From Octopus vulgaris (Eukaryota): 64,000 nt of DNA. Location of the stretch: NCBI GenBank assembly GCA_951406725.2, contig OX597814.1, positions 216,256,001-216,320,000 on the forward strand. Direction: 5' to 3'. The position numbers and the translations under genes are program-made. The notes beneath the pieces are model-generated. The model did not search any database. It was not told the origin of the DNA and saw only the letters and a list, made by a program, of their open reading frames with translations. Positions 13,933 through 53,856 of this stretch are shown here, one piece after another (positions within the stretch are counted from its first letter, which is position 1; the number at the start of each line of letters is the position of its first letter).

Positions 13933-13959
13933 ACAAAATCTATGCTATTTTAGTCCAGA

Positions 13960-23786: not shown

Positions 23787-24035
23787 GTGGGTTTGGAATT
23801 CAAATTGAATCCAACAAAATTATGAAAGAAAGAAAGAGTGAACTGAAACCTGGAGAAGTAGTGTCAACTAAAGCTGGTAAACTCAAATGCAAGGCTATCA
23901 TTCATGCTGTTGGACCCATTTGGAATAATGGAAGGGATCAGGAAATGGATTACCTTTCAAGAGCTGTTCAAAATTGTTTGGCAGTTCTTGAAGAAAAGTC
24001 TTATACATCAATTGCAATTCCTGCCATCAGTACAG
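23787..24035 (+). CDS. PARP14-like: Exon B, copy 1: macrodomain core
   Basis: ttgcag|GT...ACAG|gtaag, 249 nt, phase 1-1. Encodes GGFGIQIESNKIMKERKSELKPGEVVSTKAGKLKCKAIIHAVGPIW...SIAIPAISTG. Confidence 0.92.
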
Positions 24036-24879
24036 GTAAGAATTTACCATTTTAATTCTGTTCAAATTATTTGGTATAGAAATAAGAATTACAATATTCA
24101 AATATCTTCAGTTTGTTTCATCGCTACTCTCTGTCCATGCTGGAGCAGCACTGCCTTGAAGAATTTCTAGTCAAGTGAATCAGTCTTAGTGTCCTTTGGC
24201 CTGCGCTAGGGAGTTTTAAGGTGAAGTGCAGTGCGTGCAAACTGGCCCCACCCTTTAAGCACGAGGTTCATCTACCATGGCCTAGCGAGCTGGGACCGTG
24301 ACAGCGAGATCCTCAGACCGTAGGTTTAAAGTCGGAGTTATCCTCTCCTAGGAGGGTTGCCAACGATGGCTAACGAGCCCCTCCTGCCTGTGCCATCCAA
24401 ACCAAGGTGAAAGAGAGAAAAGGATTCATGGTTTTCAGTAGGCATATACTACCTGGTTGCCTAGGCTGGAGTTGGGGGTTAGCTAAGGAGACCCCCACCT
24501 GGAGCCTTTGATTAAAAGGTCTATCTACAAGGCAGCAAAGCGAGATCAGGGAGTCACACCCATTGATAGACAATGACAAGTAGACTAGTTCATACGCCTT
24601 TGCTTGGTCATTAACCAAACCGGGGTCCTAATGATCACAAAATTTCATTTGAGCCATTGACCAAATGGTTCTTTCGCCTCTTCTGGGATACAATGCCTCG
24701 GCTGAGACAAGGGACAGTGAGAATACAATATGTACATTTTATATACACACACAGAGTTTAAAATGCAATATATACACCATATACAGTGTTTAAAATGTTT
24801 TTTTTTTTAAATGCAATACATACAATACACACACACACAGACACACATGCACAAAGCACTCCACACACACATGTTGTTG

Positions 24880-25500
24880 GATGGCCGTTGACTATGCTGT
24901 AGTTCTTCCGTTCTTTGAGAAGTCTTATGTTTTGTGCTGCAGGGTGTCCACGTTTCAATAGCATCTTTCTTGAAATTTTGGTCAAAAGCCTTTTCTACTT
25001 AGTTGTATAGTTTTCCTTGTAAGAAATCCATAATGAGGTTAGCATATGAGGGTGCAAATTTCGTCCCCATTAAGAATATAAATGATGAGTCAGCATTTAG
25101 AAATAAATCTTACTTCACCCCTTACATGTAGGGGGTGTGACAAACATTTAGATACATATATAGACACCAATTTCCAAATTCACTCTCAGAGCCTGTAAAT
25201 GCAAACAGAACGTTTGCTAAGAAGCAAAGGAAGCTTCACTAACACTAACTGAAGAATGCCAATTGAATCATTCTCAAAGATGCCAATAAGGATGGGGTGA
25301 TAGTGATTATAGAGAGGGGCGATTACAAAGACAAAATATTGGAATATCTAACCAACCAAAACTACTATAAGAAAGACAGAACATTAATTGACCAATACCC
25401 AGACTTCTTTACAGGTAAGGAAATAAAATACTTATGTAAATCAGAAACTTAAGACTAATTTTTACAGATTACTCAAGATCCACAGAAACTTTTGTTTGAA
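24880..25500. mobile_element. Rearranged Penelope-like RT fragments in opposite orientations
   Basis: The minus strand at ~25070 reads MGTKFAPSYANL. The plus strand at ~25270-25490 has ILKDANKDGVIVI...YKDKILEYL and RLLKIH. Confidence 0.55.
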
Positions 25501-25825
25501 ATCTCAATTTTCATAGAATTCCCATTTTTGTGAGGTGCCTCATTCTTGTTAGAAGACCCAATTTGGTATTATTCTGGGGGAAAGAAAATGATGTAAAACA
25601 ATGTGATATTCTCAGCGGGGGAAAAAGAGGAACAAAACACATCAATAAGCCATTTTAACTCTCTCTCTCTCTCCTTATCGACTGTCACTGTCTATATCTC
25701 ACTTTCTCTCGATTCCACCCACCTAGCCAATACGCCCAGCTTCCTACTCACCCTCTCTGCAACCCCAACCCCTCCCCTATAAAAACCAATCCACGTGGCC
25801 TGACCCTTTCTATTCTTACTTCCAT

Positions 25826-28800
25826 ACCCTGGCTGTAACACACGGAACATGTACCTCAGGATGAAAAATAGCAACTAAGATATTTTTAAGATTTCGACTT
25901 GCTCCTCCTTTCATTGTTTTTTGCGAGTATTATCACCATAAAATATTATTTTCTCCTTCTTACTGTTGATGTCTTTCGTCTCAAACGCTAGCTCAAGCAT
26001 TTCCTCACAACATATACCTTTCACTCATAGAAACTTATTCACACGACCACAAAGCATTTCGTCTCAAATCTTGTCTTTCACCCTCATCTATCGGTCATCA
26101 CGCTGTCTATTCAATTCCTACACCATTTGCCTATCTATCGGTCTTTTCTGTCACTTAAATTCCTACCCCATCGTTCCCAGTTCGCGGTGCCACCCGCTCT
26201 CCCTCCCCCTCAACCCGTACCGGAAGTCCTTCTCTCATCTCGTCTTCCTTTAAGGCCTTAAGCCAATACCACCCCTACTATATAAGGTAGTGACCATACG
26301 GTGCAAAACATGATAGTGTAGTTTAAGCAGGTTGAACTTAAGATCATTGCTTTGCTTATGAATTCTGCCAAATGCGAGCTTTCTTTTCAGGTACATGACG
26401 TCACTGCTTCCCGTCCCAGGGTCTCTAGGGCCCATACCTCCCACACCCTCAGGGTTGGCACTCTCAACGTTGGCACACTGAAAGGTAGGTCTGGTGAGAT
26501 TGTTGAGATGCTTGAACGGAGACGTGTTGATATATGTTACATCCAAGAAGTAAGGTGGAGAGGAGGTTCTGCTAGGTTCCTCACAGGCAAAGATCACAGG
26601 TACAAGATCTTCTGGGCAGGAAACACTGACGGGGTTGGAGGCGTGGGTATACTTCTTGCTGAAAAAAGGGTAGATAAGGTAATTGAGGTAATCAGAGTAT
26701 GTGACAGAATACTTAAGATTAAAATAGTGCTTCATCATGGATTAGGAACCATTATATCAGCCTATGCCCCTCAGCCGGGGCCACCCGATGGACAGAAAGA
26801 CCGATTCTATGACGCCTTACTGCAGATTACCTCTTTCACGAACGACAGAGACCTTCTCTTTGTGGCTGGTGATTTCAATGGACATGTTGGAAAACATACT
26901 GGGGGCTTCCATGGTATACATGGAGGCTATGGCTATGGTTCCTGCAACAAGGAGGGAACCAGGCTCCTGGAGTTCTTCAAAGCAAATGATCTCATGGTTT
27001 GCAACACTAACTTCAGGAAACCTACCAGCCACCTAGTCACCTACCGATCGAGTCGACATACCAGCCAAATTGACTACATCCTTGCCAGGAAAAGGGAAAG
27101 ATGGCTGCTTATAAATGCCAAAACCTTCCCAGGCGAAGAATGTACCCCACAACATAGACTGGTAGTTAGTGACTTTAGGATCAGGACTAAGAGGACGACC
27201 AGAAGATGACCAACATGGAGAAGAAGGATCTGGAAGCTTAAAGATCCTGCAAATGGACAGAGATTTAGGGACATATTACTTCAAGCATTTGACAAAGTAG
27301 AAGGGGATATAGCTTCACATGGGGTAGAAGACAACTCGAGGATTCTAAGGGACAACCTGCTGACAGCCACTGACCAGATCTGTGGCTGGTGCAAAGTCCC
27401 CTCTCAACCTAAAATAATGTGGTAGTGGAACAATGTTGTAGACAGGGCTATTAGAGAAAAGAGACAGGCTTGGAAGGACTGGAAAAATGGGGGTAGCAGG
27501 GAATTGTATCAGACTGCCAAAAGAGAAGCTAGGAGACAGGTTTATTTAGCCAGAGGGGAAGCAGATAACAAAAAATTTGCCAATGTTCTGCGCATCGAGG
27601 ACCTAAGACTTGAGATATTTCACGTTGCAAGACAGTGTGTGAGAGAGAATCATGATGTGGTAGGAGAGAAATGTGTTCGCATGGATGATGGTTCACTTGC
27701 GCTAAATGAGGATGCAAAGAGAGGTTGGGAGACGCCACTATGAAAGGTTGCTGAATAAAGAAAATGAATGGGAAAAAGAGAGTCTGCCGAATGTCGACCC
27801 AACAGAGGGACCGGCTATCTGAGTTGACAGTTCCTTGGGAGTTAAGGCAATTAGAAGCATGAAGACAGGGAAAGCCCCCGGCCCATCAGGAATCACTGCA
27901 GAGATGCTCAAAATATCTGGTAGTGTCAGCTATAGCCTAGCCACCCGTATAGTTAACCAGGTGATACACGAAGGAGTCATACCCAATGACTGGTGTAGCA
28001 GCATAATTGTCAACTGCTACAAAGGTAAAGGTGACGCCCTAGATATAAATAATTACAGAGGTATCAAGCTGTTAGGTCAGGTAATGAAGGTTACGGAGAG
28101 GGTCATAGCCCAACTAATTAGAGATGAGATGCAGTTTGGATTCATGCCAGTGAAAAGCACCACTGATGCCATATTCCTGGTAAGACAGCTGCAGGAGAAA
28201 TACCTAGCCAAAGATAAGCCCCTGTACCTGGCTTTTGTTGACATGGAGAAAGCCTTCGACAGGGTCCCCCGATCCCTTATTTGGTGGTCAATGAGGAAAC
28301 TAGGGATAGATGAATGGTTAGTGAGAGCTGTGCAAGCCATGTACAGAGACGCTGCTAGTAAGGTGAGGGTTGGCAACGAATACAGTGAAGCATTCCAGGT
28401 AGAGATAGGGGTCCACCAAGGTTCAGTCCTCAGCCCCCTCCTATTTATCGTAGTCCTCCAGGCAATAACGGAGGAATTCAAGACAGGATGCCCCTGGGAG
28501 CTCCTCTATGCAGATGACCTTGCTCTAATTGCTGAGTCACTATCAGAACTGGAGGAAAAATTTCAGGTGTGGAAGCAAGGATTAGAATCGAAGAGCTTTA
28601 GAGTCAACCTAGCTAAAACCAAAGTCCTAATAAGTAGGAAGGTAGACAAGTCACAAACGCCTTCAGGTAGATGGCCTTGCTCGATCTGTAGGAAAGGCGT
28701 AGGTAGAAACTCTATAAGATGCACCAAGTGTAAGCTATGGACACATAAGAGGTGCAGCAACGTCAAGGGAAGGCTAACTAGGAAGATAGTTTTTGTATGT

Positions 28801-30020
28801 GGCAGATGCTCAGGAGCAATAAACACTGAAAATCTGCAGAAAACAACTTCCGTCACTTTCCAGGGAGAAAAACTAGAAATAGTTGATAGCTTCCGTTACC
28901 TAGGTGACCAAGTCAGTAGCGGGGGCGGGTGTGTTGAAAGTGTAACTGCTAGAGTAAGAATAGCCTGGGCAAATTTCAGAGAGCTCTTACCTCTGCTAGG
29001 GACAAAAGGCCTCTCGCTCAGAGTAAAAGGCAGACTGTATGATGCATGTGTACGAACAGCCAGTGAGTGAAACATGGGCCGTGTCTGTTGAGGATATGCG
29101 TAAGCTCGCAAGAAATGAAGCCAGTATGCTCCGATAGATGTGTAATGTCAGAGTTCATACTCGACAGAGTATAAGTACCTTGAGAGAGATGTTGGACCTA
29201 AGAAGCATCAGTTGTGGTGCGCAAGAGAGACGTTTGTGCTGGTATGGCCATGTGGCGAGAAAGGATGAAGATAGTTGTGTGAAAAAGTGTCACACCCTAG
29301 CTGTTGAGGGAACCTGTGGAAGAGGCAGACCCAGGGAAACCTGGGATGAGGTGGTGAAGCACGACCTTCGAACTTTAGGTCTCACTGAGGAAATGACTAG
29401 AGACCAATACCTTTGGAAGTATGCTGTGCATGAGAAGACCCGGCAGGACAAGTGAGACCATAACCCGGCCTCAGTCCACTTATGCATAACTTTCCTTCTT
29501 GGGACACAATACTCTACTTGTGAAGACCTGTTGAGGCAAGTGAAAATCAAAATCAAAATCAAAGATCAAAATCGATCAACATGAATGGAAATTGTAGGTG
29601 TGATACCAGTGCCGGTGGCACATAAGAGAACCATCCAAACGTGGCCGTTACCAGCGCTGCCCCGACTGGCTTCGGTGCCACATAAAAAGCACCATCCAAT
29701 CATGGCCATTGCCAGCCTCGCCTGGCCTCCATGCCGGTGGCACATAAAGAGCACCATTCAATTGTGGCCGTTTGCCAGCCTCGTCTGGCCTCTGTGCCGG
29801 TGGTACGTAAAGTGCACAATCCGATCGTGGCCGTTTGCCAGCCTCGTCTGGCATGTAAAAGCACCCACTACACTCATGGAGTGGTTGGCGTTAGGAAGGG
29901 CATCCAGCCGTAGAAACAGACTGGGCCTGGTGCAGCCTTCTGGCTTCCCAGACCCCAGTTGCACCGTCCAACCCATGCCAGCATGGAAAGCGGACGCTAA
30001 ACGATGATGATGATGATGAT
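25826..30020 (+). mobile_element. Near full-length RTE-clade LINE (APE + RT) with several stops and frameshifts, in intron B1-C1
   Basis: APE motifs TLNVGTL, QEVRW, SAYAPQ, GDFNGHVG and SQIDY; RT ORF 27835-29070; 3' UTR with (GAT)n tail. The 5' UTR is shared with 56613-57190. Confidence 0.93.
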
Positions 30021-30855
30021 GTGAATACTGCGTATATGATGAAGGAAACACTGGCAAGTTACTTTTTTTTTTAAATCGTTAATAGGTTTAACGTGAAAGG
30101 TAATTTAGAGAAAGAGAAGGAGGAGAAAGAAAGAAATTAGCAGAAAACTAAGAGAAATATAGTGTGATAGGTGAATGGGAATAAAACTTAAAGGCATGGA
30201 AATAGATATATGTACTGGAAATGAAATGTAAGAAGACAGAGGTTGTATTTTATGGATTGGTAGTAATTACTTATAGGAACTAAAGGTATGTTTTTGCCAA
30301 TGTTTGCAATGCTAAATACGTTCTGTAGACATATTTACAAGAGAATTCTCCAAGAACAGAATGAGATATAGTTCTTCGTTACAGAGCGGAAGACAAAATT
30401 AGAGACAAATGACTGTGTGATAAACTTTCATAGATGAATGAATGAATATGTTGCAGTTAAGAAAATGTGTGAGCTAAGGTTATCTTAGGCAACAACATCA
30501 TTCAATTTCCATGATTATCATTATTATTATTATTATTATTATGTAACAGAACGAACAACAAAGAAAAGAAAATGTGTTCAACACGAGAGAGAGGGAGACA
30601 AACATATATCTTATTAAATACCATTGTATATTAATCGGGACTAAAGACCCTCCCCCTCGGTCATGAATGGCCATGGTATTGCACCTAGAAATTTGCCCCC
30701 TGTCTATTAAAGAATCTTCTTCTAAATGATGGAATTGTATTGTTTCTTGGCATTGCAGCTGATAAATTACTGAAATTATATCACAGGTTAATTATATATA
30801 TTTTGAGTAAGAACAATTGTTGGATTAAATATGTTGTATACTTTATTTATTACAG

Positions 30856-31035
30856 GTATTTGTGGTATACCCATAGAAGAAGGAACCAAATGTACAGTAA
30901 CAGCTATAAAGGAATATCTTGATACTCACTCAAATTCTAAAATAAAACATATTTGTTTGATTGATGTACGGAAGGAAGTAATCAGAGCTTTTAAGCTTCA
31001 TCTAGAAACGGTGTTTGGAATCAGTAAAAGCAGAG
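30856..31035 (+). CDS. PARP14-like: Exon C, copy 1: macrodomain C-terminus
   Basis: ttattacag|GT...AGAG|gtagga, 180 nt, phase 1-1. Completes ISTG-ICGIP...IKHICLID...AFKLHLETVF. Confidence 0.9.
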
Positions 31036-31207
31036 GTAGGACTTGTTATTTGCTTGATATTTTAGTGAAAACTTAAATGATTTATTTCAGTGGTTAATTA
31101 AGATTTTTCCTCCTTCAGTCAACTTTTATCTGATTCCTATTATTGGTTTATGGGCACAGCCATGGATTTGTGGTTAAAAAGCTTCATTTCGAACCATGTT
31201 GAATCCC

Positions 31208-35755: not shown

Positions 35756-35889
35756 TTACATTTTCTACTAATCATTCTTTAAAGAGAAATTTCTTGAAAT
35801 AAGTGTTTTATTTTCTTATGTCCAATAATGTCGAACCAAGAGTTATAGCATTGGCTGGCTCTAAAGTATTTACGAGAGGCCATTTAGCA

Positions 35890-36268: not shown

Positions 36269-36315
<47 letters not shown>

Positions 36316-37640: not shown

Positions 37641-38979
37641 ACACAAAACTGACTATATATTCTTCTCCTTTTTCTTTTTTCTCTTGTTGTTTTTCTTTCT
37701 TTTAGCCAGTTATACAATTGAAAATTGAAGACTGATGACATCATTTTGTCAAACTGGGAATGCAGGATCTCCTTGTTCCAACTTTTGAATTTGAATTTCT
37801 ACAATTTTTAAATTTCTATTCATCACGTTTTCATTAGAACTTGACAAAGAGAAGCAAACAGTTGAAATATTGATCAATCTAATAAAATCATCATCATTGT
37901 TTGACATCCATGTTCCATGCTAGAATGGTTGGGACGGTTTGACAGGAGCTGGCCAGGCACTTCTGTGTCTGTTTTGGCAGGATTTTTACAGCCTAATGCC
38001 CTTCCTAATATCAACCACTCAGCAGAGTGGACTTAGTGATTTGTACGTGGCACAAGCACAGGTGAGGTTAATTTTGGCAAGGTTTTTAAATCTGGGTGCC
38101 CTTCTGCACACCAACAACTTTACAGCATGGACTGGGTGCTTTTAAGCGGCACCTGCACTGACACGGACACTAGGTACTTGCAAGACAAAAAATACTTTCA
38201 AGAGGGGTGAGGGAATTGTAGGATATGATCTTGTGTCAGATGATGAAAGGTCAGAGAGAGAGAGAGAGAGCAAGAAAGAGAAATAGGGGTCTTGCTGTAA
38301 TGGAAGTACAAGGTTACTCCACCTGAGAAAGAGAGATTAGGGATGAGGAAAGAAACAGGCACATTACTGCAAAGGAAATACATGGTTACGCAACTTGAGA
38401 GAAATGAAGGAGAATGCGAGAGTGTGGGAGATAGCAGGATAGATATGGAGTAAAATGTCAGGGATACTCATAAGGAATGGGGATCAGAATATAGATGGGA
38501 TGGTTGAGTAAAGGAAGAGAGAGATACAGATAGTGGCAAGTGCCAGGGTATACCCTTGAGGTTCGACGCATTCTTCATTTTGTCTGATAATAATAATAAT
38601 AGTGTTGACCGGCCCAATGCTTGGGATGAAGGTGAATGAACTGCAAATCAGTACTTAATTCTGGAGCAATATTTTGATAAAGATACTGAACCAACTGATG
38701 CTCACGTGTCTCAAGAATCATGATCATGGTCCCCAATACACAGAGATACAAAGGGAACAGGCCCAACATATGTGTAATAATGTCTCTGCAGTCTTGGTTG
38801 ACAATCTTACTAGAGATGGTGTCTTGATAAAAAATACCAGTTGGTGGCTAATTTTAGAACACAAACCTCAATATTGAATGAAAATGCTTAATACAAGTGT
38901 ATCAAATAATGTGTCAATGAGTCTGGAACCAACAGTCCACTGATGTTGAGCAGTGTAGGATCAGTCATTACCCAGAGAC

Positions 38980-40460
38980 TGCTTGTGCACGAAATCAAAT
39001 TGAATGCTGGATCAGGAATGAACCCAACAGAAGGGGATTCTGACAATGAATGAGAGCCAAATGGAATGAGATAGGACTCTTCGAAACAAGTGAGCAATTG
39101 TTAGCCGACCAGGCAAGAGCAATTAGAGCAAAAAGGTGGTTAACGGACATGGAAATTGAAGAGATAAAAAGAAAAGTAGAAAGGAGAAATAATCCTTCAC
39201 CAACAGATAACGTGCCCAGTGAGAACAGAGAAATAAATAAGGGCAGTGAAGATGTAGAGCAAAGTGTAAATGTAAATGCATTCTCCACAAATTAAGCAGA
39301 AGTAATAGGAAGAGCTGTATCCCAATAATACGGTGATGCCCAACAAGACGTAGAGAGGATATATTTGAGAAGACCAGGATCAAGACCCTTCCCCCCATAA
39401 TCTGAGGTACATTGACCAATGCAAGATCAAGGTTGAAACCATAAAGATAGATTCAGTTCTTGGGCTGTTCCATACGAGAAATATCACTGAAACTCACAAG
39501 ATTATTTGGGGTGCAGCAACTGTTGCTGCAGATAGAATTGGATAGAAAAGGAAAGAACAAATAGAACGTAAAGAACCGTTCTGGTGTAGAGGAATTTGTA
39601 AGGAACAAAGACATTTAGGACAAGTTGATAGATTGAGAAGAGGGGAATTGCAGAATGAAAGTATAAGAATGATGCTGGAAAGGACAGATGGAATAAGAGA
39701 TAAATTGTATGATGAGATATTGGAAGAAATGAAACAAAGAGTTGGAGCAATCAAAGCAAAACAGGAAAGATATGTCAATAGAAGAAAATAATTCAAGCAG
39801 AACAGATTGTTAGAAGCATATTAGAAGTAACTGTTTCAGGAACTGGATGGGCAATTACACATAACAATGATACCAGAAGCAGAGGTAAGTAGGGCATTTT
39901 GGAGAGAGATCTGGTACCAATCTGCAGATGATAATAATGAAGCAGAGTGGCTGCATGAAATCCAAGATAGGTTAAGAAATATAGAAGGCAAAAAAGACAT
40001 AAAAATAACTACAGAAATGATAAAAAAAAGCAGTTAAGAAAATTCCCAAATTGGAAGAGCCCAGGACTGGATGGGGTCCCAGATTATTGGATGAAGAAGC
40101 TGAGAGGGATCCATCAAAGGAGAGTGCAACAGCTAGATGAGTGCTTGCAGGAAGGTGCAGTACCCAGATGGAAGACAAAGGGAAAGACATTGTTATGTGC
40201 CAAGGATCCTGGAAAGGGAAATGTTGCATCCAACTTTAGAACAATAACATGCTTTCTGCTCACATGGAAACTAATGTCAGGTAATTTGGCTGCTGAACTG
40301 TACAGATACTTGGGAAAAAGTAGGTTGCTACCCATTAAACAAAAAGGGTACAGTAAAAGGAGCCAGGATACGAAGGATCAGCTCTTGATTGCTAATCTAA
40401 TTATCAGGAAATGCAAGAGAAGACATACAAACTCAGCATGGCATGGGTCGACGATCGCAA
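38980..40460 (+). mobile_element. Decayed R4/Dong-like non-LTR fragment (unit 2 copy)
   Basis: Near-identical to 13960-15385; ORF 40091 contains NFRTITC...WKL...QKG...KDQLLI. Confidence 0.7.
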
Positions 40461-40614: not shown

Positions 40615-41030
40615 GCGGGCATGTCGGATGAAATGGCTAGCGGTATTTCATCCATCTTCACACTCAATGTTCAAATTCTGACAGGGATGACTATGTCTTT
40701 CATCCTCTTGCATTTGCAATGTGATCGATGTAATCTATTTAGCCACTCTCCTGAAATTGCTGGCCTTGTGCTAAAATTTGAAAACAAAATTTCAGTGATG
40801 TTTATGGTCAATAAAATAAGTACCTGTTGATCACTGGGGTTGATGTAATTGACTTAGCCACTCTCCTGAAATTGCAGGCCTTGTGCCAAAATTTGAAACC
40901 AAAATTCCAGTGATGTTTATGGTCAATAAAATAAGTACCAGTTGAGCACTGGGGTTGATGTAATTGACTTAGCCACTCTCCTGAAATTGCTGGCCTTGTG
41001 CCAAAATTTGAAACCAACATTCCATGATGT
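40615..41030 (+). repeat. SINE remnant (B-box-like gttcaaattc) followed by ~2.7 x 115-bp units
   Basis: Full units start at 40809 and 40924, with a partial unit from ~40724; same unit as 15388-15957. Confidence 0.85.
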
Positions 41031-41236
41031 TTCTAGTATTTATTATAATTAATAGAGATAGTGTCTACTTAGTGTCTGTGAAATGTTGGTTATATTTTTC
41101 TGTTTGCTAATGCATTATACTAATAACATTACTTTGTCTTCAAATACTTTTCTGTCTTTACCCACTAAACTCCCCATCTCACCCCTACTCCCTCACCAAC
41201 GAAATGATTTTGTCTTTTTACCTTTTCCTAATTCAG

Positions 41237-42773
41237 TTGTTCTGGACGTTTGTAGAAGACGACATCAACTGGAAGGTGTGAAGTCAGATGTTCAACCATT
41301 CTGGGAACCATCTGAAGAAAATACCATTTCAAGACAGCAAGTCCATGACTATTTACTACCTTCCAAGTTCCATCTGACTTTCTTAAAGAAACATAAAATC
41401 ATAGTTAATGACCAATTAAAGAAATGGGCTGAAGTAATATGGAAAGATTCCAAGTTTAATAAACTGAAATTAAGTTATTCTGAAGGAAATTTGAAGCAAA
41501 TTGAACAATGTTTGGAAGAGTTACTAAATTCCATTACTGTTGAAATCATTGATGTTCCAACCAATATTTTTGAAGATGTTGCTAGAACATTGAAAAGTGA
41601 AGATGATGAGATGTATTTTTATTTTGATATCCAATATCATAAAGTTCATATTTTTGGATTTGATAAAAGTAATGTAATTAAAATGAAAAACAGACTTTTG
41701 GATAATCTTAGAACGATATATGAGGATGATTTAAGTATTCATGGAAGGCGTATTCTATCTGGTCTCAGATTTTTTGAGCAGGCAGAAAGACAATCTGAAG
41801 ATCTACAAGTCAGGATTCATGGTAACAAAGTTATTTTTGAAGGCCAGTATTCCGAATTAGCTACTTGTCTCAAGAATATGTATAAAATTCTTCAGTCAAT
41901 TGTTAAATCTGAATTGTGTTTGCCTTTAAATACTGGAATGATCATAAATAAAAAAACCAGTGAAAGAATATCTTGATGAAGAACTGAGAAACAAGAAATG
42001 TATTGGTTCATGGGAAACGGGTGATGGTGATTCAGTATTACTTTATGCAAGTGATAAAACACATCTTTCACTTTTGGAAGAAATTATGAAAGAAACTTTT
42101 GTTGCCAACACACTGGATTTTGTAGACAAAATTAAGGATACTCCACATTATGGAAAGTGGCTGACATTTGTTGAAAGTCTAAAAGAAGAGTTTCCAGATT
42201 CCCATTTTATTGGAGAAAATTCTCTTGTTGCTGTTGATGCTGTAGTTAATGATATAAAAAGCAAAATTGATAACTTTAAGCAATCTTTAACTGATGAATC
42301 TTATATATCGATGACTCATGCACATTTCCTCTTTCTTAAAGAGTTCAAAGAACAAGAAATCAATGACTTTGGTGCAAAAAATAAAATTAAGAATGTGTGT
42401 CTCAAAGATAATAAGTTACACCTGAAAGGAACACGAGAGCAAATTAGGAAAAAGGAAATATTTATAGAAAATTTAAGAAAGGATACCAGATCCCAAGAAG
42501 AAAACTTTGAAATGTTTAGATTTCAAAAAACCCAGAAAAGTGAAGAAGGAAAGAGTTTCTTGAGTGAAATGCAGAAGGAATATGAGAGTATAATATCTTT
42601 AAATTCAGATTTAGAAAGTGAAACAGAAGAAATACTTAATTTTGTGTATAAGAACTGTGAAATAGTGTTGAGGGAAGGTGACATCACGACTCTGGACACA
42701 GATGCTATTGTTAATGCTACAAATGGCAGACTGAATCTTATGGAAGGAGTTGCAGCAGCCATTGTGCAGAAAG
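41237..42773 (+). CDS. PARP14-like: Exon A, copy 2, of the PARP14-like gene; +1 A at 41950-41956
   Basis: Same acceptor as copy 1, donor aag|gttagt. Length 1537 nt = 512 codons + 1. ORFs 41083 and 41960 join if one A is removed; the exon ends IVLREGDITTLDTDAIVNATNGRLNLMEGVAAAIVQK. Confidence 0.85.
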
Positions 42774-44344
42774 GTTAGTAATACCATTTTTTATAGTTAA
42801 TGTTTCTTTTTAGATCCAAGTGTGGTTGAGAAGCTAACTTCCTGATCACGTGGTTTCAGGTTCAATTCCACTCACAGCATTTTGGACAAGTGTCTTCTGT
42901 TATAGGTCAGTGGTTGGCCAAAGCCTTGGGAGTGGATTTCGTTGATAGAAACTGAAAGAAGCTCATCATTTATACATACATATATACTTTTTTATAAAAG
43001 GTGTATACAGCTCATTGGAGCACTTCTATTTCCAGTCCGTTGTATATCTTGAGTGTTGTTTGTCACTCAAGATATAACTTTATATTTTGTAATACATACA
43101 TATATATATGTGTGTGTGTGTGTGAGGGTGAGTAGCCAGGTGTTGACAGCACACGATGGTTGTAAATGAACATCACCATCACACAAGTGATGTTGTGTCA
43201 TTTCCAGTCCTCCATGAAAAACATGTCTGACCGTGGAGAAATATTCCCTCATTTGGAAACATGTGGCACTTGGCTACAGGAAGGACACCCAGCCATGGAC
43301 ACTAAATTATGGTGCACAGACACACACACACACACATATACATACACATGTACGTACCAACACGCATGAACACACACACACAGTATACATGCACACAATA
43401 GCTTTATATACATCCACTTGCTTGCACACACAGTTACATCGCATAGCCTTATACACACACACATAAACCAAAAGCATGGACATACATACACACATGCATA
43501 GATACTTATACACAGTAGTCTCATACACATGAGTGCTCACATACACGTGCCAAGTTCATAGTTGTCTCCATGTCACTCATACCTCAAGTCAGCTCTCATA
43601 GATGTCTCCCTTGGTTGCCAGAGCCACTGACACCTTCAGCAACCTCTTCCTCCTCCAATCATTTCAGCTTCTAGTGACACTCTCACACGGGTTTTTTTCT
43701 TTTCTCTCTCTCTTCTTCTATTCTTTCTGTCAAAGAGTAGGCTCAAAATGTTAAACACTTCCTAATTTCACTAAGCATAAAGTTGATACACTTCTGCTGT
43801 GGAGGTCAGGTCTTCTTGAGAACAGCAAGGCACCAGATATCTCAGTCCTTTGTCATCTCATCCACAAGGTTCACCGTTCGGAGGTTCTCCTTCAGAACTT
43901 CGTCCTCTGTTTTACTGGGTCTCCCTCTTACACAAGTTCCATCCACTTTGAATGTACGGCACTTCTTTGTTGAGCTGTCAGCAACCCTTCACATCACATG
44001 ACCAAACCATACTGTCTTCTCTCACAGACTGCATCCAATTCTTCTTCTGCCAAACTTCTCTCTCAATACACTAACAGTCTGTTGCATATATGTGTTTCTT
44101 TATTGGCCACACAAGGCTGAATACAGAAGGGACAAAATACAAAGTAGAGCTTTTCTTTTTGGAAGGAAGAAGAGAATAAACGAAAAAAAAGAAGTGGGTC
44201 GAATTCCAATCAAAAGGGTTTGTGAAGAAAAAAATTATATACATATACGTGTGTGTGTGTGTGTATACAAGTAAAATAGAATAAAAATGTAATATATATA
44301 TTGATATATATAACAAAATATATTTATAATAGAAAATAATAATA

Positions 44345-47113
44345 ATCATCGTTTAAGATCCGCATTCCATGCTAGCATGGGTTGGACAATTTGACTGAGG
44401 ACTGGCAAACCAAATGGCTGCACCAGGCTCCAATCTTCATCTTGCAGAGGTTCTACAGCTGGAACCCTTCCTAACGCCAACCGCTCTGAGAGTGTAGTGG
44501 GTGCTTTTATATGCCACCGACATGGAACTCAGTTAGATTCAGGTGGTACTGGCAACAGCCACGCTCAAATGGTGTTTGTTACGTGCCAATCCAGTGGCAC
44601 TCGCAACGACCTCACTCAAATGTTTTTTCACATGCCACCAGCACAAGTGCCACTAAGACGACACTGGTAACAATCAATGGTGCTTTTTATGTGCCACTGC
44701 CATGGAAGCCAGTTAGCTGCTCTGGCAATGATCACTCTCGGATGGTGCTCATAGTGCTCCACTAGCATAGATGCCAGTCATCAAATCTGATTTCGATTTC
44801 ACTTGCCTCAACAGGTCTTTGCAAGCAGAGTTTAGTGTCCGAAGAAGGAAAGGTACACATAAGTGGGCTGGTTACACCCCTGGCATAGGACGCAAAGTTA
44901 TGGTCTCATTTGGCTTGCTAGGTCTTCTCAAGCACACCATATTTCCAAAAATCTCAGTCACCAGTCATTGCCTCGGTGATGCCTAATGTTCGAAGGTCGT
45001 GCTTCACCACTTCGAACCAGGTCTTCCTGGGTCTACCTCTTCCACAGGTTCCCTCAACTGCTAGAGTGTGGCACTTTTTTCACACTGCTGTCCTCATCCA
45101 TTCTCGCCACATGACTATACCAGTACTGTCATCTCTCTTGCACCCCAATCTGATGCTTCTTAGGTCCAACTTTTTTCTCAAGGTACTTACACTCTGTCGA
45201 GTATGCACACTGACATTACACATTCAGCGGATCATACTGGCTTTATTCCTTGTGAGCCTACGCATATCGTGAGCAGTCATAGCCTATGTTTCACTGCCAA
45301 GTAGCATGGCTGTTGATACACATGCGTCATACAATCTACCTTTTACTCACCAGCAGAGGTAAGAGTTCTCTGAACTTTGCCCAGGCTATTCTTATTCTAG
45401 CAGCTACACTTTCAGTGCACCCCCACCCCCCAGCTTCTGAATTGGTCACCTAGGTAATGGAAGCTATCAACTACTTCTAGTTTTTCTCCCTGGAATGTGG
45501 CAGAAGTTCTTCTCTGCACATTTTCAGTGTTTATTGCTCCTGAGCATCTGCCACATACAAAAACTATCTTCCCAGTTAGCCTTCTTTCGATATTGTTGCA
45601 CCTTTTATGTGTCCATAGCTTATGCTGGGTACATCTTATAGAGTTTCTACCTACGCCATTTCTACAGATCGAGCAGGGCCATCTACCTGAAGGGATTTGT
45701 GGTTTGCCTGCCTCCCTACTTATTAGGACGTTGGTTTTAGCTAGGTTGACTGAGGCCCGTCGATTCTAATCCTTGTTTCCACACATGAAACTTCTCCTCA
45801 AATTCTGATACTGACTCAGCAATTAAAGCAAGGTCGTCAGCATAGAGGATCTCCCAGAGGCATCGTGCCTTGAATTTCTCTGTTATTTCCTGGAGGACTA
45901 TGATAAATAGGAGAGCCTGAGGACTAAACCTTGGTGGACCCCTACCTCCACCCAGAATCCTTCACTGTACTCATTGCCAACCCTCACCTTACTGACAGCG
46001 TCCTTGTACATGGCTTGCACAACTCTCACTAAGCATTCATTTATCCCTAGGTTACTCATTGACCACCAGATAAGGTGTCGGGGGACCCTGTCAAAGGCTT
46101 TCTCAACAAAAGCCAGGTACAGAGGTTTATCTTTGGCTAGGTATTTCTTCTGCAGCTGTCTTACCAGAAATATAGCATCAGTGGTGCTTTTCCCTGGCAT
46201 GAACCCAAACTGCATCTCATCTAAACTGATTTTCTCTCTAATTAGTTGGGCTATTACCCTCTCCATGACCTTCATTACCTGATCGAACAGCTTGATACCT
46301 CTGTAATTATTTGTGTCTAAAGCGTCACCTTTACCTTTGTAGCAGTTGACTATGGTACTGCAACACTAGTAATTGGGTATGACTCCTTTGTGTATCACCT
46401 AGGTAACTATAAGTGTGACTAGGCCATAGCCGACACTGCCAGATATTTTGAGCATCTCTGCAGTGATTCCTGATGGGCCAGTGGCTTTCCCGGTCTTCAT
46501 ACTCTTAATTGCTTTATCTACCAAGGTACTGTCAACTCGGATAGCTGGTCGCTCTATGAGGTCAACATTCAGCAGACCCTCTTTCTCCCATTCATTTTCT
46601 TTATTCAGCAACCTTTCATTGTGGCATCTACAAATCTCTCTCTTTGCAGCCTCATTTAGTGCAAGTGAACCATCATCCATGCGAACACATTTCTCTCCTA
46701 CATCACGATTCTCTCTCACACACTGTCTTGCAACATGAAATACCTCAAGTCTTTGATCCTCACGGCGCAGAACATTGGCAAATTTTTCCTTATCTGCTTC
46801 CCTTCTGACTAAATAAACCTGCCTCCTAGCTTCCCTTCTGGGAGTCTGATACACTTCCCTGCTACCACCGTTCTTCCAGTCTTTCCAAGCCTGTTTCTTT
46901 TCTCTAATAGCCCTGTCAACAACATTGTTCCACCACCATGTTATTTTGGGTCAAGAGGGGACTTTGCAACATCCACAGATCTGGTCAGTGGCCCTCAGCA
47001 ATTTGTCCTGTAGAAACCTCCAGTTGTCTTCTACAACGTGTGGGGCTATATCCCCTTCTATTTTGTCAAAGGCTTTGAGTAATATGTCTCAAAATCTCTG
47101 TCCATTCGCAAAC
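44345..47113 (-). mobile_element. RTE-clade LINE, 5'-truncated and degenerate, antisense in intron A2-B2
   Basis: Minus ORFs 46399-46854 and 45898-46275 match the RT of 2300-5329; the 3' UTR ends near 44345. Confidence 0.9.
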
Positions 47114-47666
47114 TAGCAAATTTGGACGAGAGCATCTTCTGGATACTTATTCTTTCGGCAGTGGTATTAAAAATTGAGTAGGGAATCCAAGTGCGTGCAC
47201 TAGTATATATAGGGTGGTGGTGTTGGTGGAAGAGGAGGAAGTCTTGGCGAGGTGAGTGGTAATCGAAAAAGAGAGAAACACACAGCCAGAGTGAGAGCGA
47301 GACAAAGACAGGGAGAGAGGATGGGTAGAGATGTTCAGAACACGAGGTAGAAAAATAAGGAATTGCTTGAGCTAAGGTTATCTTAAAGGCAAAAACAGGG
47401 AAGACGAAACTATTGAAACTATATTTACACGTCTACATGGTAATGAAATAGGCAGAATAATGAAAAGAACTAACAAGGGGTTTATGATTTGTGCAGAAAT
47501 AGAAGAGTAAGTGACGAGGTTGAAAAGACAAAACTTCTTATCTGAGCATCTTCTGCGATTCATATTTTTTCGCTGAGGTATTGAAATAATATATTAATAT
47601 ATTACACATATTAACATATATTAACATGTATTAAACAGGAACATAAGAATGCAAATATTATTGCAG

Positions 47667-47915
47667 GTGGGTTTGGAATTCAAGCTGAATGTAACAGAAT
47701 TATGAAAGAAAGAAAGAGTGAACTGACACCTGGAGAAGTAGTGTCAACTAAAGCTGGTAAACTCAAATGCAAGGCTATCCTTCATGTTGTTGGACCTGTT
47801 TGGAATGATGGACAAACTGAGGAAATTTTTCACCTTTCAAGAGCTGTTCGAAATTGTTTGGCAGGTCTTGAAGAAAAGTCTTATACATCAATTGCAATTC
47901 CTGCCATCAGTACAG
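47667..47915 (+). CDS. PARP14-like: Exon B, copy 2: macrodomain core
   Basis: ttgcag|GT...ACAG|gtaag, 249 nt. Encodes GGFGIQAECNRIMKERKSELTPGEVVSTKAGKLKCKAILHVVGPVW...SIAIPAISTG. Confidence 0.92.
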
Positions 47916-48828
47916 GTAAGAATTTACCATTTTTGTTCTGTTCAAATTAATTGGCACAGAAATAGTAATTACACTATTTAGTGTATAGCAAGGCAACTAT
48001 CCTGTCCCTCTCTCATGCTCTAACCTCTCCTCTGGCATCCATCCACTTCCCTTGGTTTCACTCCTCGTCTCAACTAAAAGCCTTTGTCTTGCAAGTAACT
48101 TGGCAACCCCACTTTTTACGTGACACCAAACCTGTGATGGTGTCACATAAAAAGCACCCAGTGCATTCTTTAAAATGGTTGGCATTCTGTAAAGGAAGGG
48201 CATCCAGCCATAGAAACTATACCAAAAAAGAAAATTGGTACTTGGACAGCTCTCCGGCCTTGCCAGCATCAAAAACAGAGGTGAAATGATGACAATGATG
48301 ATATTATATATATATATATATATTATTGTAGAAGATGTGGTTGGTTATGGTTAAAAGGTTGATGTTCCACATGATTTCTGGTTCAGTTCCCTGGCAAGGT
48401 ATTTTGGGCAAGTCGTTCATTATAGACCTGGGTTTGGCCAAAACCTTCTCAGTGGATTTGGTGGACGGGAATTGAAAAGAGGCCTGTTGTGGCACAGCTG
48501 ACATTCTAGAAGAACAGTATTTGTTGTTGTTGTGTGAGGGTGTGGCAGTCCTAGCACCCAAGCAGACGAGTCTTGTCTGCCAACAATATATGAGTGCTTT
48601 GATGCACCAGACATCCATATGAGACATCCTCTCATGGTAAATAACGCAGTATTTGGTGCTCAAACACAACATCCACATTTAGTTGGATATAAAAATTGCC
48701 TGTTGGTATTACTATTGCTTCTGTTGCTGTTAATTACCTTTTTCATAGACTTGCTGGCTATTTGCAAAATCAGTGCCTTAACAGATACTGAAATTCTATA
48801 TATGGTCAATAGATTTGGCTGTTAAGTA

Positions 48829-48888
48829 ACTACTAGATGTCTCCTACTGAAGAATCCAGGCAGGATGAAATCATGTCATCTGGCAGTA
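48829..48888 (+). ncRNA. Candidate type I hammerhead ribozyme motif
   Basis: CTGAAGA (48847)-atcc/aggca/ggat-GAAA-tcatg-TC; the flanks actactagat and atctggcagt can pair. Stem III is imperfect. Confidence 0.45.
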
Positions 48889-49365
48889 ATAGTGATTGTA
48901 GCAGATGGTTCTCGTCTGTTAAAAATATAAATATGAGTAATTTTATGCACCCAAGGCCCTGTGGGAGGTCCTCTTGAGGTAAATAATGGAGTACTCTCTG
49001 TTCTAACATGACCTCTACATTAAGTTGGAAGTAAAGATTGCATATGTATATATATATATATATGGCTGTCCACTCATGACTGAGGAAGCGAGGAAGACCA
49101 TTACAGACCTTCAGGAATATTCAGCACTCTAGGCATAACGTATATTTTGCATTTGTGGCCCCAGTGGTGGCTAATGAGCCCTGCTCTTGACATGCATACA
49201 TGACTGCAAACATTGCAAACCAAGGTGTCCCCATTCACTACACCAGCAGTACACTTTCAACCAGCATGCTTAAATTCTTCATGCTGAATACATGCTCTCT
49301 CAAAAGTGTTGACTCCCCATCCTTAACCCGCTTCCTCAATATGTGGTGATGACAGGCACTGCTCT

Positions 49366-49780
49366 GAGGAAAACTAATCGCATTCCTTGAAAAAAATAAC
49401 TTGCTAAGTGATACCCAACATGGTTTGCAACCAGGTAGGAGCTGCCTGACCCAGCTCTTACAACATTATGACTGGGTGTTGAGGCAGTTACTCAACAAAT
49501 CAAATGTGGACGTAATATACCTTGATTTTGCAAAAGCTTTTGCCAAGGTGGATAATGGTATGATATGCCACAAACTGCGTGAGCTCGGCATAGCTGGAAA
49601 AAACCTGGAGAGTGGTTACATGACTTCCTGAAAGATAGGAGTCAGGCAGTAGTGGCTAATGGAGCCACCTCTATGAACACACAAATAGTGAGTGGTGTTC
49701 CACAGGGCACTGTCTTGGGACCACTGCTTTTAATAGTGGCCCTCTCAGTTATGCCCTCATACGCCCGGATAGCCACTCTG
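49366..49780 (+). mobile_element. CR1-like LINE RT fragment
   Basis: QHGLQPGRSCLTQLL, VDVIYLDFAKAF and SGVPQGTVLGPLL. Confidence 0.8.
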
Positions 49781-50070
49781 ACAATCACACCTTAAGCTTC
49801 AGACACTGGGATAAAAAGAAAGCAACCAAATAATCCAGTTATATATGGCCCTTAAAAGAAAAAGGTGTCAGTTAGAAAATCCACTGGAAGATCTTGGCCA
49901 AATGTAAGCCTTACACTAACGGCAGTGGAAAGTGCAGTCTTTGCGATATGGAAAGATGGCTTGTCTGGAAAAGTTCTTTAGACCCTACTACATGTCTAAA
50001 TTCAAGAACTGAACTTTTTGGGTCATGTCCAAATATAGCGAAACATTTGTTATGTTTTTGCCCCCCGTCT
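49781..50070 (+). mobile_element. 3' GIY-YIG fragment of the same PLE family as 2-670
   Basis: AKCKPYTNGSGKCSLCDMERWLVWKSSLDPTTCLNSRTELFGSCP is nearly identical to ORF 233-670. Confidence 0.85.
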
Positions 50071-50263
50071 CCCCAGATCACAGATAAATCCTGTTTTTTA
50101 TATTATGTCCACATGCAAGCGTTTCATGTCTTGCCATTTCTTATATTTTTCTTATATATATTTTATTGCTTTATATATTTTTTCTGTATATTATTTTTCA
50201 CTCTTTATATTGGAATAATATGTGTGTGTATGCATATTTTATATGTATTTATGTTAACATAAG

Positions 50264-50300
<37 letters not shown>

Positions 50301-50334
50301 TTGTATGTATATGTACACGCGTGTGTGAGTATGT

Positions 50335-51440
50335 ATATGGGAACGCGAATGGGCCCCAACAATGTGAACCTATTTGTTGGAACTTTGAGGACCAAATATT
50401 CTCAAGATGCACTGGTCCCACTCCCAAACTATATGGTCGATATTTTGATGACTGTATTGGTGCAACTTCACTCTACCACGAATACCTAGACGCCTTACTC
50501 TCTTTTGTCAAATCTTCCCATCTTCCTCCCACTTCTCCTGCACTATTTCCATGGTCAGCATTCATCACACCACTCTCAGCACCTCCATCCAATATAAACA
50601 TAGACTCACACTCATACCTCAACTTCTCCTCCTCCCACCCTACACACACCAAGATCTCCATCCCCTATTCTCAATTCCTTCATCTACACAGGTTCTGCAG
50701 TGACGACCATGAGATTGAGACTGAGTCTCAACTCATGGCTTCCCACTTCTTCCTACGTAGATATCCGCTCACCACTATCCACACTGCCCTTGCCAGACCA
50801 CGTTTGGTGGACTGTGCTTCTGCTCTCTCCCCCGCCGTCTCCTGTTTACCCTCACCTACCACCCCACCACTCTATCCAACACACCATTCTACGAGCCTTC
50901 TGGCGACTCCAGTCTGACCCCTACCCTTTGCACATCTTCCTTAATGGACCTCTCCCCTCCTTCAAAAGAACCCACAACCTACGAGACCTCTTGGTCGACA
51001 GCCCTAACTCAACCTTCCAACCCAGCTCATTCTCCTGCTCCTTCCCATACTGCTGCACTTGCCCTTACCTCTCCAACATCCCCCTCACAGGCATCCATCA
51101 TCAACCCTAATATATCACTGACTCCTTCACCTGCACTTTTAGCAACATCATCTACTGCATATCCTTCCCTCTTTGTCCTTCTCTGTACATCAGTCAAATG
51201 GGAAGCCGCTTGGCTGACCAGTTCACGAAACACCTCCGAGACATCAGACTTTGCAACAACACTCCAGTCTCATGCCATTTGCGCTCTACCGGTCATTCTT
51301 TACAACACCTGTCTGTGTTCAGAATGTCCTTGCACAGGGGCCATCCAGGCTCCCGTTTTCCTGTGAACAGGGATTAACCTTCTCTCTTCGCTCCTTTGCA
51401 CCACATGGGCTCAACTCTCTTTCCCTCTTCATGAAACCCT
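50335..51440 (+). mobile_element. Decayed C-rich Penelope-like element of a different family (RT to GIY-YIG)
   Basis: Across frames: MGTRMGP..NLFVG, YGRYFDD, SHSYLNFSSSHP, SIPYSQF, FKRTHNLRDLLV, CCTCPY and IIYCI...LYISQMG. Confidence 0.8.
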
Positions 51441-52760
51441 CCTTTCTTCCTCTCACATCTATTTCCTCCCACGCACCTCTCCTCTTGCTCTGACACCTAC
51501 TTCCTCTCTTCTCTCCAACCCACCTTCTCCCTTCGCTGTAACCCCCACCCCTACACAATCCAACCCCACCCTCCCTGTTCATCCAATCCCATCCCACTCC
51601 CACATACCCCCTCAACACCACATCATACCACCCTGCACACACTAGCACTAACCACTTCCCAGAACCCACACCATCATCCATACATCTACACATGCACACA
51701 CATGTGTCAAGGTCACCAACCCTCATCCACATGCACATACACATTCTCACACGTATGAGCACATTCGTTTTGGGATCACAACTACTTTATTATTTCCCAT
51801 TCTTCCTAGCTTTCCTGTGTGACTCCTCTGTCTAGCATTTGCCATGATAGATCGCTAGTCAACATTCTTTATTTTCTCTTCCTGTTTATTTCTGTGTTTC
51901 TTTCTGCGCGTAGGCTCAAAACGTTAAAGACTTTCTCACTTCCCGAGTGTTAAACTAATACATCTGCTTGTTGTTTACAGACCTGTCTTCATCTTTTATT
52001 TTTTGTAAATTCTGACTATATATATATGTAACGGATTTAGTTTGGTTGATATTGAAATTGTCAGAGTCAGCAGTTGCGACGATGATTATTTGTTGTTATG
52101 ACAGCATACTGTAGGTTGTGAAAGATAGACACTGCATGAAGTTTAGAGGAAATGTTTATTTACCGTTACGTTAAAATAACTTGCCTCGACGGGCATGTTG
52201 TGATAGATCCAAAATCATGCAAAGTAAAGTTTGTCTATGTGTCCTCTTCATTGTTTAGTAGTAGTAATTACAGAGAGATAGAATGACATTGTAAGGGACA
52301 GAATTAGAGCTAGAGAGAATTGTAGGGTGTTGTCTCACAGTTGCTTTCTCCCTCTGACCAACGTTGAATCGTCACCAACCGTGACTAACTCCGTTAAGTC
52401 GTCATGACTGTGATGAACTCACTTTTGCTTGGGGTATGCTTGCTTTATAAAGATCCAGAAGGATAGATATATCATTGAGAACAACAGATTCAGTTGGTGG
52501 TCTTGTTATCTCTATTCTAGCTTTTGCTGAAGTAGAAGAGGTTAGAAAGGGTCAAGCGGTGAAGACATTATTTCGGCCTAGCTAAAGGCATCTGAAAAAT
52601 GTAAAACTGCTGTCAGAGAAACACCATTGTTCCATCGTGGGAAGAGTTCTGTAATAGTGTTAATTTAAATTTGGCTATGGTGGATCAAATCTACTTCATG
52701 CATGCAAGATTCACTACATATATATATACACAAATGTGTTCGTGTGTGTGTGCACAACTG

Positions 52761-52804
<44 letters not shown>

Positions 52805-52992
52805 GTGTGCATATGCAGATTCTGAGAAAAAAGTTTTACTTTCCCTATGCTTATTAGAGTAATTTTCCTTTCTTCAACAGTTTTTTTCATAGCATTTTTG
52901 TTTTGTCTTAATAACTGATGAGATACCAGAGCAGATTTAAGCCCTGACATCCAGAACTCTGAGTTTTATTATGACAACCAACTAATTGTTAC

Positions 52993-53051
<59 letters not shown>

Positions 53052-53296
53052 GTGGGTGGGTGTATGTGTGACTGTGTTAGTACCTGTTTGTCTTTTAATC
53101 ACATGATATTTGTAAACAATGATCACCATCATACAAGCAGTGTCATCCATTTGCAGTCTGCAATGAAAACATGTCTGGCTATGGGGATATATTAGCTTCC
53201 TTGGTGTGGGGGTGGGTGATAGGAATGTCACCTAGACATACAAAAATTTGCCTCAACCAATTCCACCTGAAACATGGAAAAGGAAATGTTAAAACG

Positions 53297-53349
<53 letters not shown>

Positions 53350-53676
53350 CATCATGATTATTATTATTTTACTGAACAAACAAGAAAGAAAAGAAATGTG
53401 TTCAACAAGAGAGAAACAAAGTTCTTCTTAAATACCATTGTATATTAATGCGGGCTAAAGACCACCACCTCCACCCCACCTCGGTCATGAAATGCCATGG
53501 TATTGCACCTAGAAATTTGCCCCCTGTCTATTAAAGAATCTTCTAAATGATGGAATTGTATTGTTTCTTGGCATTGCAGCTGATAAATTACTGAAATTAT
53601 ATCACAGGTTAATTATATATATTTTGAGTAAGAACAATTGTTGGATTAAATATGTTGTATACTTTATTTATTACAG

Positions 53677-53856
53677 GTACTTTTGGTATACCCATAGAAA
53701 AGGGAACCGAATGTATAGTAACAACTATAAAGATTTATCTTGATGCTTACTCAAATTCTAAAATAAAACATATTTGTTTGATTGATGAACAGAAGGATGT
53801 AATCAGAGCTTTTAGGCATCATCTAGAAACGGTGTTTGGAATCAGTAAAAGCAGAG
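53677..53856 (+). CDS. PARP14-like: Exon C, copy 2: macrodomain C-terminus
   Basis: ttattacag|GT...AGAG|gtagga, 180 nt. Completes ISTG-TFGIP...IKHICLID...AFRHHLETVF. Confidence 0.9.

Follow-up and report, generated by a model that had tools for sequence, protein, structure and literature searches.

Exon divergence, gene conversion and candidate diversifying selection in a PARP14-like gene family of Octopus vulgaris

Among the macro-PARPs, PARP9, PARP14 and PARP15 of primates were reported to show recurrent positive selection (Daugherty et al. 2014, PMC4038475). Macrodomain 1 of human PARP14 is an ADP-ribosyl hydrolase, which is blocked by the substitution G832E (PMC10499325), and its activity was reported to have been lost recurrently among mammals (PMC10221186). 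In invertebrates, clustered PARP14-like duplicates are described in lancelet and sponges (PMC13224862), a PARP14-like protein is known from octopus mucus (PMC11431876), and Aplysia carries 17 PARP genes of all kinds (PMC9334734). A different system, the gibbon L/M opsin genes, shows paralogue exons that diverge beyond their introns, which was attributed to intron conversion combined with selection against exon homogenising (PMC3213168). In this study, we analyse the macrodomain exons of a PARP14-like gene of Octopus vulgaris within a stretch of 64,000 nucleotides (contig OX597814.1 of assembly GCA_951406725.2, positions 216,256,001 to 216,320,000 of the forward strand), hereafter called the window. 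No description of a large diversifying cephalopod PARP14 family, or of a repeated module of KH-like region plus macrodomain 1, was found in the open-access literature.

The two copies of exons B and C studied here are modules 1 and 2 of a repeat that comprises a KH-like region and macrodomain 1. The reading that we prefer, with a probability of about 0.6, is that gene conversion and unequal crossing-over homogenise the neutral DNA of the family, and that diversifying selection keeps and recombines alternative residue patches.

The repeated module and its gene family

Mapping of proteins onto 194 kb around the window revealed three tandem A-B-C units, about 25 kb apart, in one PARP14-like gene, of which the exon order is RRM exons, A-B-C three times, two type-2 macrodomain units and the catalytic exons. 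Exons A, B and C all have phase-1 ends. The copies in the window, with their variable tract, are as follows.

16186..17713, + strand: exon A of module 1, which encodes the KH-like region over about 470 codons and then the opening 40 codons of macrodomain 1; both ends in phase 1
23787..24035, + strand: exon B of module 1, the middle of macrodomain 1 (Pfam Macro, E 2e-20)
23927..23953, + strand: hypervariable tract, codons 47-55 of exon B, in the loop that follows VGP and the first part of the helix beyond it; the module 2 counterpart is 47807-47833
30856..31035, + strand: exon C of module 1, the end of macrodomain 1
41237..42773, + strand: exon A of module 2, the KH-like region and the start of macrodomain 1
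47667..47915, + strand: exon B of module 2 (Pfam Macro, E 8e-20)
53677..53856, + strand: exon C of module 2, counterpart of 30856..31035

Module 3 starts about 2 kb past the 3' end of the window. The RRM exons precede the window by 12 and 17 kb, and gene model P0002 matches Pfam RRM_PARP14_3 (E 1e-13). Downstream of the window, the catalytic exons, which are open, lie 57-62 kb beyond its end, with PARP14 as their best PDB matches (PF00644, E 2e-17 in the paralogue gene model P0003). The proteins matched by exon A are labelled PARP14-like and come from Octopus vulgaris, O. sinensis and O. bimaculoides; weak matches also exist to the equivalent region of other long macro-PARP-like proteins. The KH identity of this region is a lead only: a Pfam scan of exon A gave no match, and the top Atlas match (0.93) falls in a cluster with KH_PARP14_2 on only 36% of its members. 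Likewise, no Pfam WWE match was obtained in the six proteins scanned, and the "WWE" exon label was given by position alone. Public gene models cut the gene into two (P0002, P0001) at the second of two frameshifts. The alternative of two separate genes was rejected, as the DNA between the modules contains no RRM, type-2 macrodomain or catalytic exon. In sequencing runs guessed to be RNA, splicing is seen at the level of the family from the RRM exon to A (X14, X18) and from A to B (X19), with contigs that stop at the end of C; among the contigs listed, none joins exon C to exon A, which carries no weight for or against such splicing.

The family consists of about 17 PARP14-like genes on one chromosome, in clusters at 5.3-9.5, 206-207 and 215.8-216.6 Mb, each gene with 0 to 3 modules. 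The copies found on this chromosome number at least 23 (A), 19 (B), 16 (C), 16 (RRM exon) and 17 (last catalytic exon). Judged by position, the module is repeated in four genes, two with two copies and two with three, which are located in two distant clusters. Four of the 23 exon A copies, at 7.55, 8.52, 8.92 and 9.25 Mb of the same chromosome, G000:C1 (L071, L072, L066, L061), are not followed by B and C and run on to type-2 macrodomains; these four genes appear from their exon content to lack most of macrodomain 1. The O. sinensis gene models P0006 and P0010 resemble them. Two further type-2 macrodomain units reside on another chromosome (L147, L150; G000:C29, 31.78-31.81 Mb), and no accompanying A, B, C, RRM or catalytic exon was found there in the family searches.

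The window's gene is not read through by a single open reading frame. One extra A in an A-run causes a frameshift in exon A of module 1 (at 17416) and again in exon A of module 2 (at 41950), and the linker exon past module 3 contains a stop codon (at about G000:C1:216342914) that occurs in 1 of 28 copies, whereas most of the other copies have an open frame. At 41950, the extra base is missing from the contigs of four other runs, and at 17416 from those of two of four; these contigs may derive from paralogues, and each extra A may be a consensus error or a private allele. The gene is probably a disabled allele or a recent pseudogene, and we infer that its differences are mostly older family variants. 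At the intron rate, about 50 stop variants would be expected in the exon sets analysed, compared with 3 observed, and most of the variation therefore arose in working genes. A neighbouring gene at 216.48-216.61 Mb (G000:C1; L184, L073, L057, L058) has three modules and a frameshifted RRM exon; its first exon A is shortened and interrupted by a stop, and the search for a catalytic exon downstream of it gave none.

Divergence of the exons and exchange between copies

A first-pass annotation of the window had counted, by eye, 16 replacement codons versus 1 silent codon between the two copies of exon B, and 14 versus 0 between those of exon C; our recount agrees, with 23 of 249 and 17 of 180 nucleotides differing, respectively. 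Realignment also reproduced the 0 of 135 differences upstream of exon C and the 6 of 165 downstream, and the replacements cluster after VGP as claimed. The broader statement, that the exons are more divergent than their introns, stands for exon C (17/180 vs. 6/300, P 0.0005), whereas exon B fails to show it (23/249 vs. 13/125, P 0.71). Taken jointly, exons B and C are more divergent than the flanks that adjoin them (40/429 vs. 19/425, P 0.007) and also than all collinear non-coding DNA of modules 1 and 2, in which 159 of 4687 sites differ. At the family level, exon divergence lies above that of the flanking intron at P 0.053 for exon C and at P 4e-10 for a macrodomain 2 exon, but not for B, A, the RRM exon or the second catalytic exon. 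In the macrodomain 2 case, which is a stronger example than exons B and C, the 250-base intron before the first type-2 macrodomain exon (L121-L150) has a diversity of 0.031 vs. 0.101 in the exon after it, over 29 copies.

Whole-codon counts understate silent change, because silent steps hide in codons hit more than once, and several codons of the B/C pair differ at two or three bases. Pathway counting yields 35 replacement and 5 silent steps for B and C together (pN/pS 2.1-2.7; binomial P 0.047-0.17), and with mutation rates taken from introns the ratio of replacement to silent substitution rates (dN/dS, or omega) is 2.27 (P 0.05-0.11). The pair alone thus does not establish a ratio above 1, and we reject pair-only dN/dS as proof of selection. 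The pair is a favourable draw from the family: the 73 of 105 family pairs with at least 25 differences have medians of 25 replacement and 4 silent codons, and no more than one silent codon is present in 5 of the 73.

There is evidence of exchange between the copies. By the four-gamete test, 50% (B) and 43% (C) of the informative site pairs are incompatible, a fraction that rises with distance (neighbour test, P <0.01). At 26 of the 31 codons in which modules 1 and 2 differ, both states are present in other genes, and the nearest relative switches along exon A. Exon C of module 1 has 17 differences from its module 2 counterpart and 5-13 from each of the remaining copies, even those 200 Mb distant; the 135 bases that precede it match those of module 2 exactly and differ by no more than 1 base from those of four further copies of the cluster. 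The stretches shared by modules 1 and 2 include the following.

30718..30858, + strand: 141 identical nucleotides (= 53539-53679), which stop 3 nucleotides inside exon C; likely a conversion tract
16744..17050, + strand: homogenised coding stretch of exon A, identical in both modules save the extra A of module 2
13955..15385, + strand: retroelement-like DNA in a decayed state, located upstream of exon A; it matches 38972-40402 at 98% identity, has no equivalent before module 3 and likely belongs to a recent exchange between modules 1 and 2

The first-pass annotation had allowed that the intron identity might be explained by conversion tracts that stop at the exon edges. Conversion is indeed real and strong, but tracts halting at exon edges are not general: identical runs span the edges at 30998-31052 and 23986-24053, and we reject such halting as a rule, the gene's longest homogenised stretch lying inside exon A. 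The EIFH-type patch of exon B is found in O. bimaculoides proteins and the EMDY-type patch in those of O. sinensis, both being present in O. vulgaris; these alternatives are likely old, because other Octopus species carry them. Shuffling among copies amounts to 0.77 of the free-shuffling expectation at the replacement sites of B and C, compared with 0.38 at flank plus silent sites, a gap that was reached in 8 of 1167 simulations. Silent sites inside B and C are not shuffled (3 vs. 12.6 expected), and the flank on one side of B or of C is consistent with that on the other (0.21 and 0.34 of free shuffling).

A tandem repeat of about 115 bases lies just upstream of each exon A in the window (15388-15957, 40715-41032), has abundant relatives elsewhere in the read data, and takes the place of the 5' part of exon A in L072 and L073. 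Decayed copies similar to long interspersed nuclear elements (LINEs), 75-86% alike and with endonuclease-like and reverse-transcriptase-like open reading frames, are located at 2305-5075, 25826-29853, 44336-47110 and 54557-55764, where they interrupt the collinearity of the modules. An AT-rich simple repeat of about 1.9 kb occupies 8030-9970 (GC 17% in 8001-10000).

Variable positions and tests for selection

A predicted model of the spliced macrodomain 1 (mean predicted local distance difference test, pLDDT, 94.7) has human PARP14 macrodomain 1 as its best match (template-modelling score, TM, 0.91), and the fold matches PDB entries 3VFQ, 4D86 and 3Q6Z with a root-mean-square deviation of 1.2-1.3 at 39% identity. 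The variable sites were placed on the secondary structure of this model. In the model, the variable codons 6, 10, 13 and 14 of exon B have the spacing of one face of a helix, and codons 47-54 span the loop that follows VGP, which we take to border the pocket, together with the first part of the helix beyond it; codons 1-2 of exon C fall in loop 2.

The pocket loops also differ between the modules. Loop 1 of module 1 has both the Asn and the Gly that flank it by the criteria of PMC10221186; in alignment to human PARP14, modules 2 and 3 retain this Asn and the final Gly and carry Glu at the first of the two loop 1 glycines, and loop 1 of module 2 is altered to NATN...LMEGV vs. NAAN...HMGGV. That last glycine, the neighbour of the one replaced by Glu, is presumably the counterpart of human G832. 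Loop 2 starts with Ile-Cys in module 1 and with a hydrophobic residue plus Phe or Tyr in the other 14 of 15 copies, among them Thr-Phe in modules 2 and 3, which agrees with the hydrophobic plus aromatic criterion given in PMC10221186. By the criteria stated there, module 1 is predicted from its residues to be without hydrolase activity.

The selection tests used 19 of 19 rows for exon B, 15 of 16 for C, 18 of 23 for A, 13 of 16 for the RRM exon, 15 of 17 for the last catalytic exon, 7 of 8 for the exon before the catalytic domain, and 29 of at least 40 copies for the macrodomain 2 set. Copies with stops, frameshifts or truncations were excluded, as was one catalytic copy for a boundary shift. 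Since exons B and C had been picked for looking extreme, their P values are somewhat favourable, whereas the catalytic exons were not so picked.

Nominally, the site-model comparisons M1a/M2a, M7/M8 and M8a/M8 are significant under four frequency schemes, with twice the log-likelihood difference at 14.8-34.9 for B and 11.1-14.3 for C. In simulations with conversion only and no positive selection, however, about 35 of 52 and 17 of 40 pass the nominal cut-off. We therefore reject the site models as proof of selection. When each variant is counted once, omega is 0.50 at the start of macrodomain 1, whose opening 42 codons are the most constrained part tested, and 1.3-1.8 in the catalytic exons. 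AT-biased mutation was dismissed as the source of the high omega, intron-derived rates changing the values little. A frequency-spectrum test for an excess of mid-frequency replacement variants gives suggestive P values of 0.065 for B and 0.083 for C.

Tests that do not depend on a tree are more informative. In exon B, 6 of 82 codons hold at least four residues (P 0.002 against a model without positive selection; Bayes factor 5.5-21), with the null model matched for silent variants and invariant codons and including doublets at up to 10%; the fitted diversifying class comprises about 23% of the codons at an omega of about 4. This excess persists when the window's gene is removed (P 0.001) and in the 10 copies from genes in which no lesion was found (P <0.002, 813 matched runs). 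When the codons of B and C are divided by their conservation among 146 non-octopus macrodomains at a cut-off of 0.4, omega is 1.66 at the non-conserved codons (P 0.015) and 0.51 at the conserved ones (P 0.017). The strongest signal comes from the catalytic exons, with a Bayes factor of 53-77 and omega of 2.3 at non-conserved codons (P 3e-6), and it outlasts a harsh null model (Bayes factor about 5, P 0.012). Selection specific to the macrodomain is accordingly rejected. Among the changes in the catalytic exons (L091-L111, L156-L172), some lie close to the histidine and tyrosine motifs. A positive leaning is also seen in one macrodomain 2 exon, with a Bayes factor of 3-32, and in the central part of the KH-like region, with 5-18; for the RRM exon and two further KH segments, the signal is weak (0.8-4.5). 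These results favour a class of codons with omega >1 in exon B and in the catalytic exons. Both outcomes that the first-pass annotation had set against selection, a dN/dS not significantly above 1 and intron identity due to conversion, thus apply in part, but the tree-free tests of the family still favour diversifying codons in exon B.

Explanations and comparison with known systems

In the reading that we prefer, conversion and unequal crossing-over would even out the flanks and neutral sites, while alternative residue patches would persist and be recombined, producing peaks of divergence such as exon C between near-identical flanks. Selection would keep a minority of positions diverse along the whole protein, beyond the macrodomain. 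Several results weigh against this reading. The window pair alone is not significant, and omega per distinct variant is 1.08 for B, 0.90 for C and 1.05-1.08 over all exons. The site-model statistic of exon B (24.3) was attained by 4 of 52 runs in one set of conversion-only simulations and by no more than 1 of 40 in the other. The Bayes factor of exon B drops to about 2 with strong variation of mutation rate among codons, and that of exon C alone is about 1. At a cut-off of 0.5, the conservation partition of B and C falls short of significance (P 0.085), and that of the whole macrodomain 1 does so at every cut-off (P 0.08-0.31), omega being 1.03-1.10 with 17 outgroups. The excess of mid-frequency variants is not significant without the window's gene (P 0.11), and about 7 of the roughly 17 genes have some lesion in the exons examined. 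In addition, the selection tests compare paralogues of one assembly with our own implementation rather than codeml.

The main rival is relaxed constraint in a redundant birth-and-death family with conversion, in which the core is held, the surface drifts at an omega of about 1, and the 30:1 pair arose by chance. The overall omega, the P of 0.05-0.17 for the pair, the 11 of 73 family pairs that are equally poor in silent steps, the roughly two-thirds of conversion-only simulations that pass the nominal site test, the lesions in many genes, three of them in the window's gene, and the exon C Bayes factor are all in line with it. Relaxed constraint would not, however, yield the six exon B codons with at least four residues or the elevated omega at non-conserved catalytic codons, nor would it confine shuffling to replacement sites, and we consider it unlikely. 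Local mutation hotspots or multi-base mutations could cluster replacements without selection, and adjacent doublets do exceed background, at 0.107 vs. 0.040 in exons and at 0.26 vs. 0.16 in introns; a gamma shape of 2 for codon rates with up to 20% doublets is what lowers the exon B Bayes factor to about 2. Such strong rate variation is not seen in the introns, where the triplet variance/mean is 0.5-1.4 and mostly near 1, the exon B null already held doublets at up to 10%, and the catalytic signal survives the harsh null; hotspots seem quite improbable as the cause.

Exchange limited to exons, by way of reverse-transcribed mRNA, would shuffle exons between distant copies and spare the introns, which fits the agreement of the flanks around shuffled interior sites and the plentiful retroelement-like open reading frames in the window; yet a blind RNA template would not spare the silent sites of B and C, and identical runs cross the exon edges, which makes this route very improbable. 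We give the least credence to the modules being an assembly artefact, i.e., a false duplication of haplotypes: both exon A frameshifts are in A-runs, and contigs from other runs are without the extra base, but each of the three units has its own inserted repeats, their sequences diverge by 3-10%, and repeated modules occur in four genes of two distant clusters.

Beyond the preferred reading of homogenised neutral DNA and selected residue patches, a wider interpretation, which we regard as tentative and rather doubtful, is that octopus PARP14 forms a diversified immune array resembling the major histocompatibility complex (MHC) or NOD-like receptors (NLRs). The writer surfaces and the reader/eraser surfaces would be diversified and recombined by conversion, the eraser module (KH-like region plus macrodomain 1) would be deleted, doubled or tripled between genes, and repeats with altered pockets would serve as non-catalytic readers or as decoys against pathogen antagonists. 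The first-pass annotation had also suggested an arms race; a pathogen may be the selective agent, a suggestion made only by analogy with primate PARP9, PARP14 and PARP15. If the selective reading is true, conflict over ADP-ribosylation reaches molluscs, and on the scale of a multigene family. The natural variants, with 0 to 3 eraser domains, altered pocket loops and variable catalytic surfaces, would then allow a direct test of what selection on macro-PARPs changes. The octopus family is also a clear case of site-model tests misleading on converting paralogues.

While similar in several respects, the octopus family differs from each of the systems introduced above. As in the primate macro-PARPs, where sites in macrodomains and in other domains, including the PARP14 catalytic domain, were reported as selected and where PARP14/15 genes were born and lost (PMC4038475), the octopus signal extends past the macrodomain and the genes turn over; the primate signal, however, is between single-gene orthologues, whereas the octopus has about 17 paralogues with heavy exchange and an internal module repeat. 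Macrodomain 1 shares its fold and its place in the domain order with that of human PARP14, but occurs in 0 to 3 copies per gene, and module 1 lacks the loop 2 aromatic, whereas modules 2 and 3 have an altered loop 1. The predicted cut in hydrolase activity through pocket-loop changes, and the 4 of 23 exon A copies without B and C, are reminiscent of the mammalian losses of macrodomain 1 activity (PMC10221186), although the octopus genome holds both loss and amplification of the domain. The local PARP14-like gene clusters of lancelet and sponges are an invertebrate likeness (PMC13224862); the lancelet cluster reported there has four genes, compared with about 17 in the octopus at about 90-95% DNA identity. 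Finally, as in the gibbon opsins (PMC3213168), octopus paralogue exons diverge beyond their introns, in some exons only (C and a macrodomain 2 exon), but the opsins described there are of two fixed functional types, whereas the octopus exons form many patchwork types.

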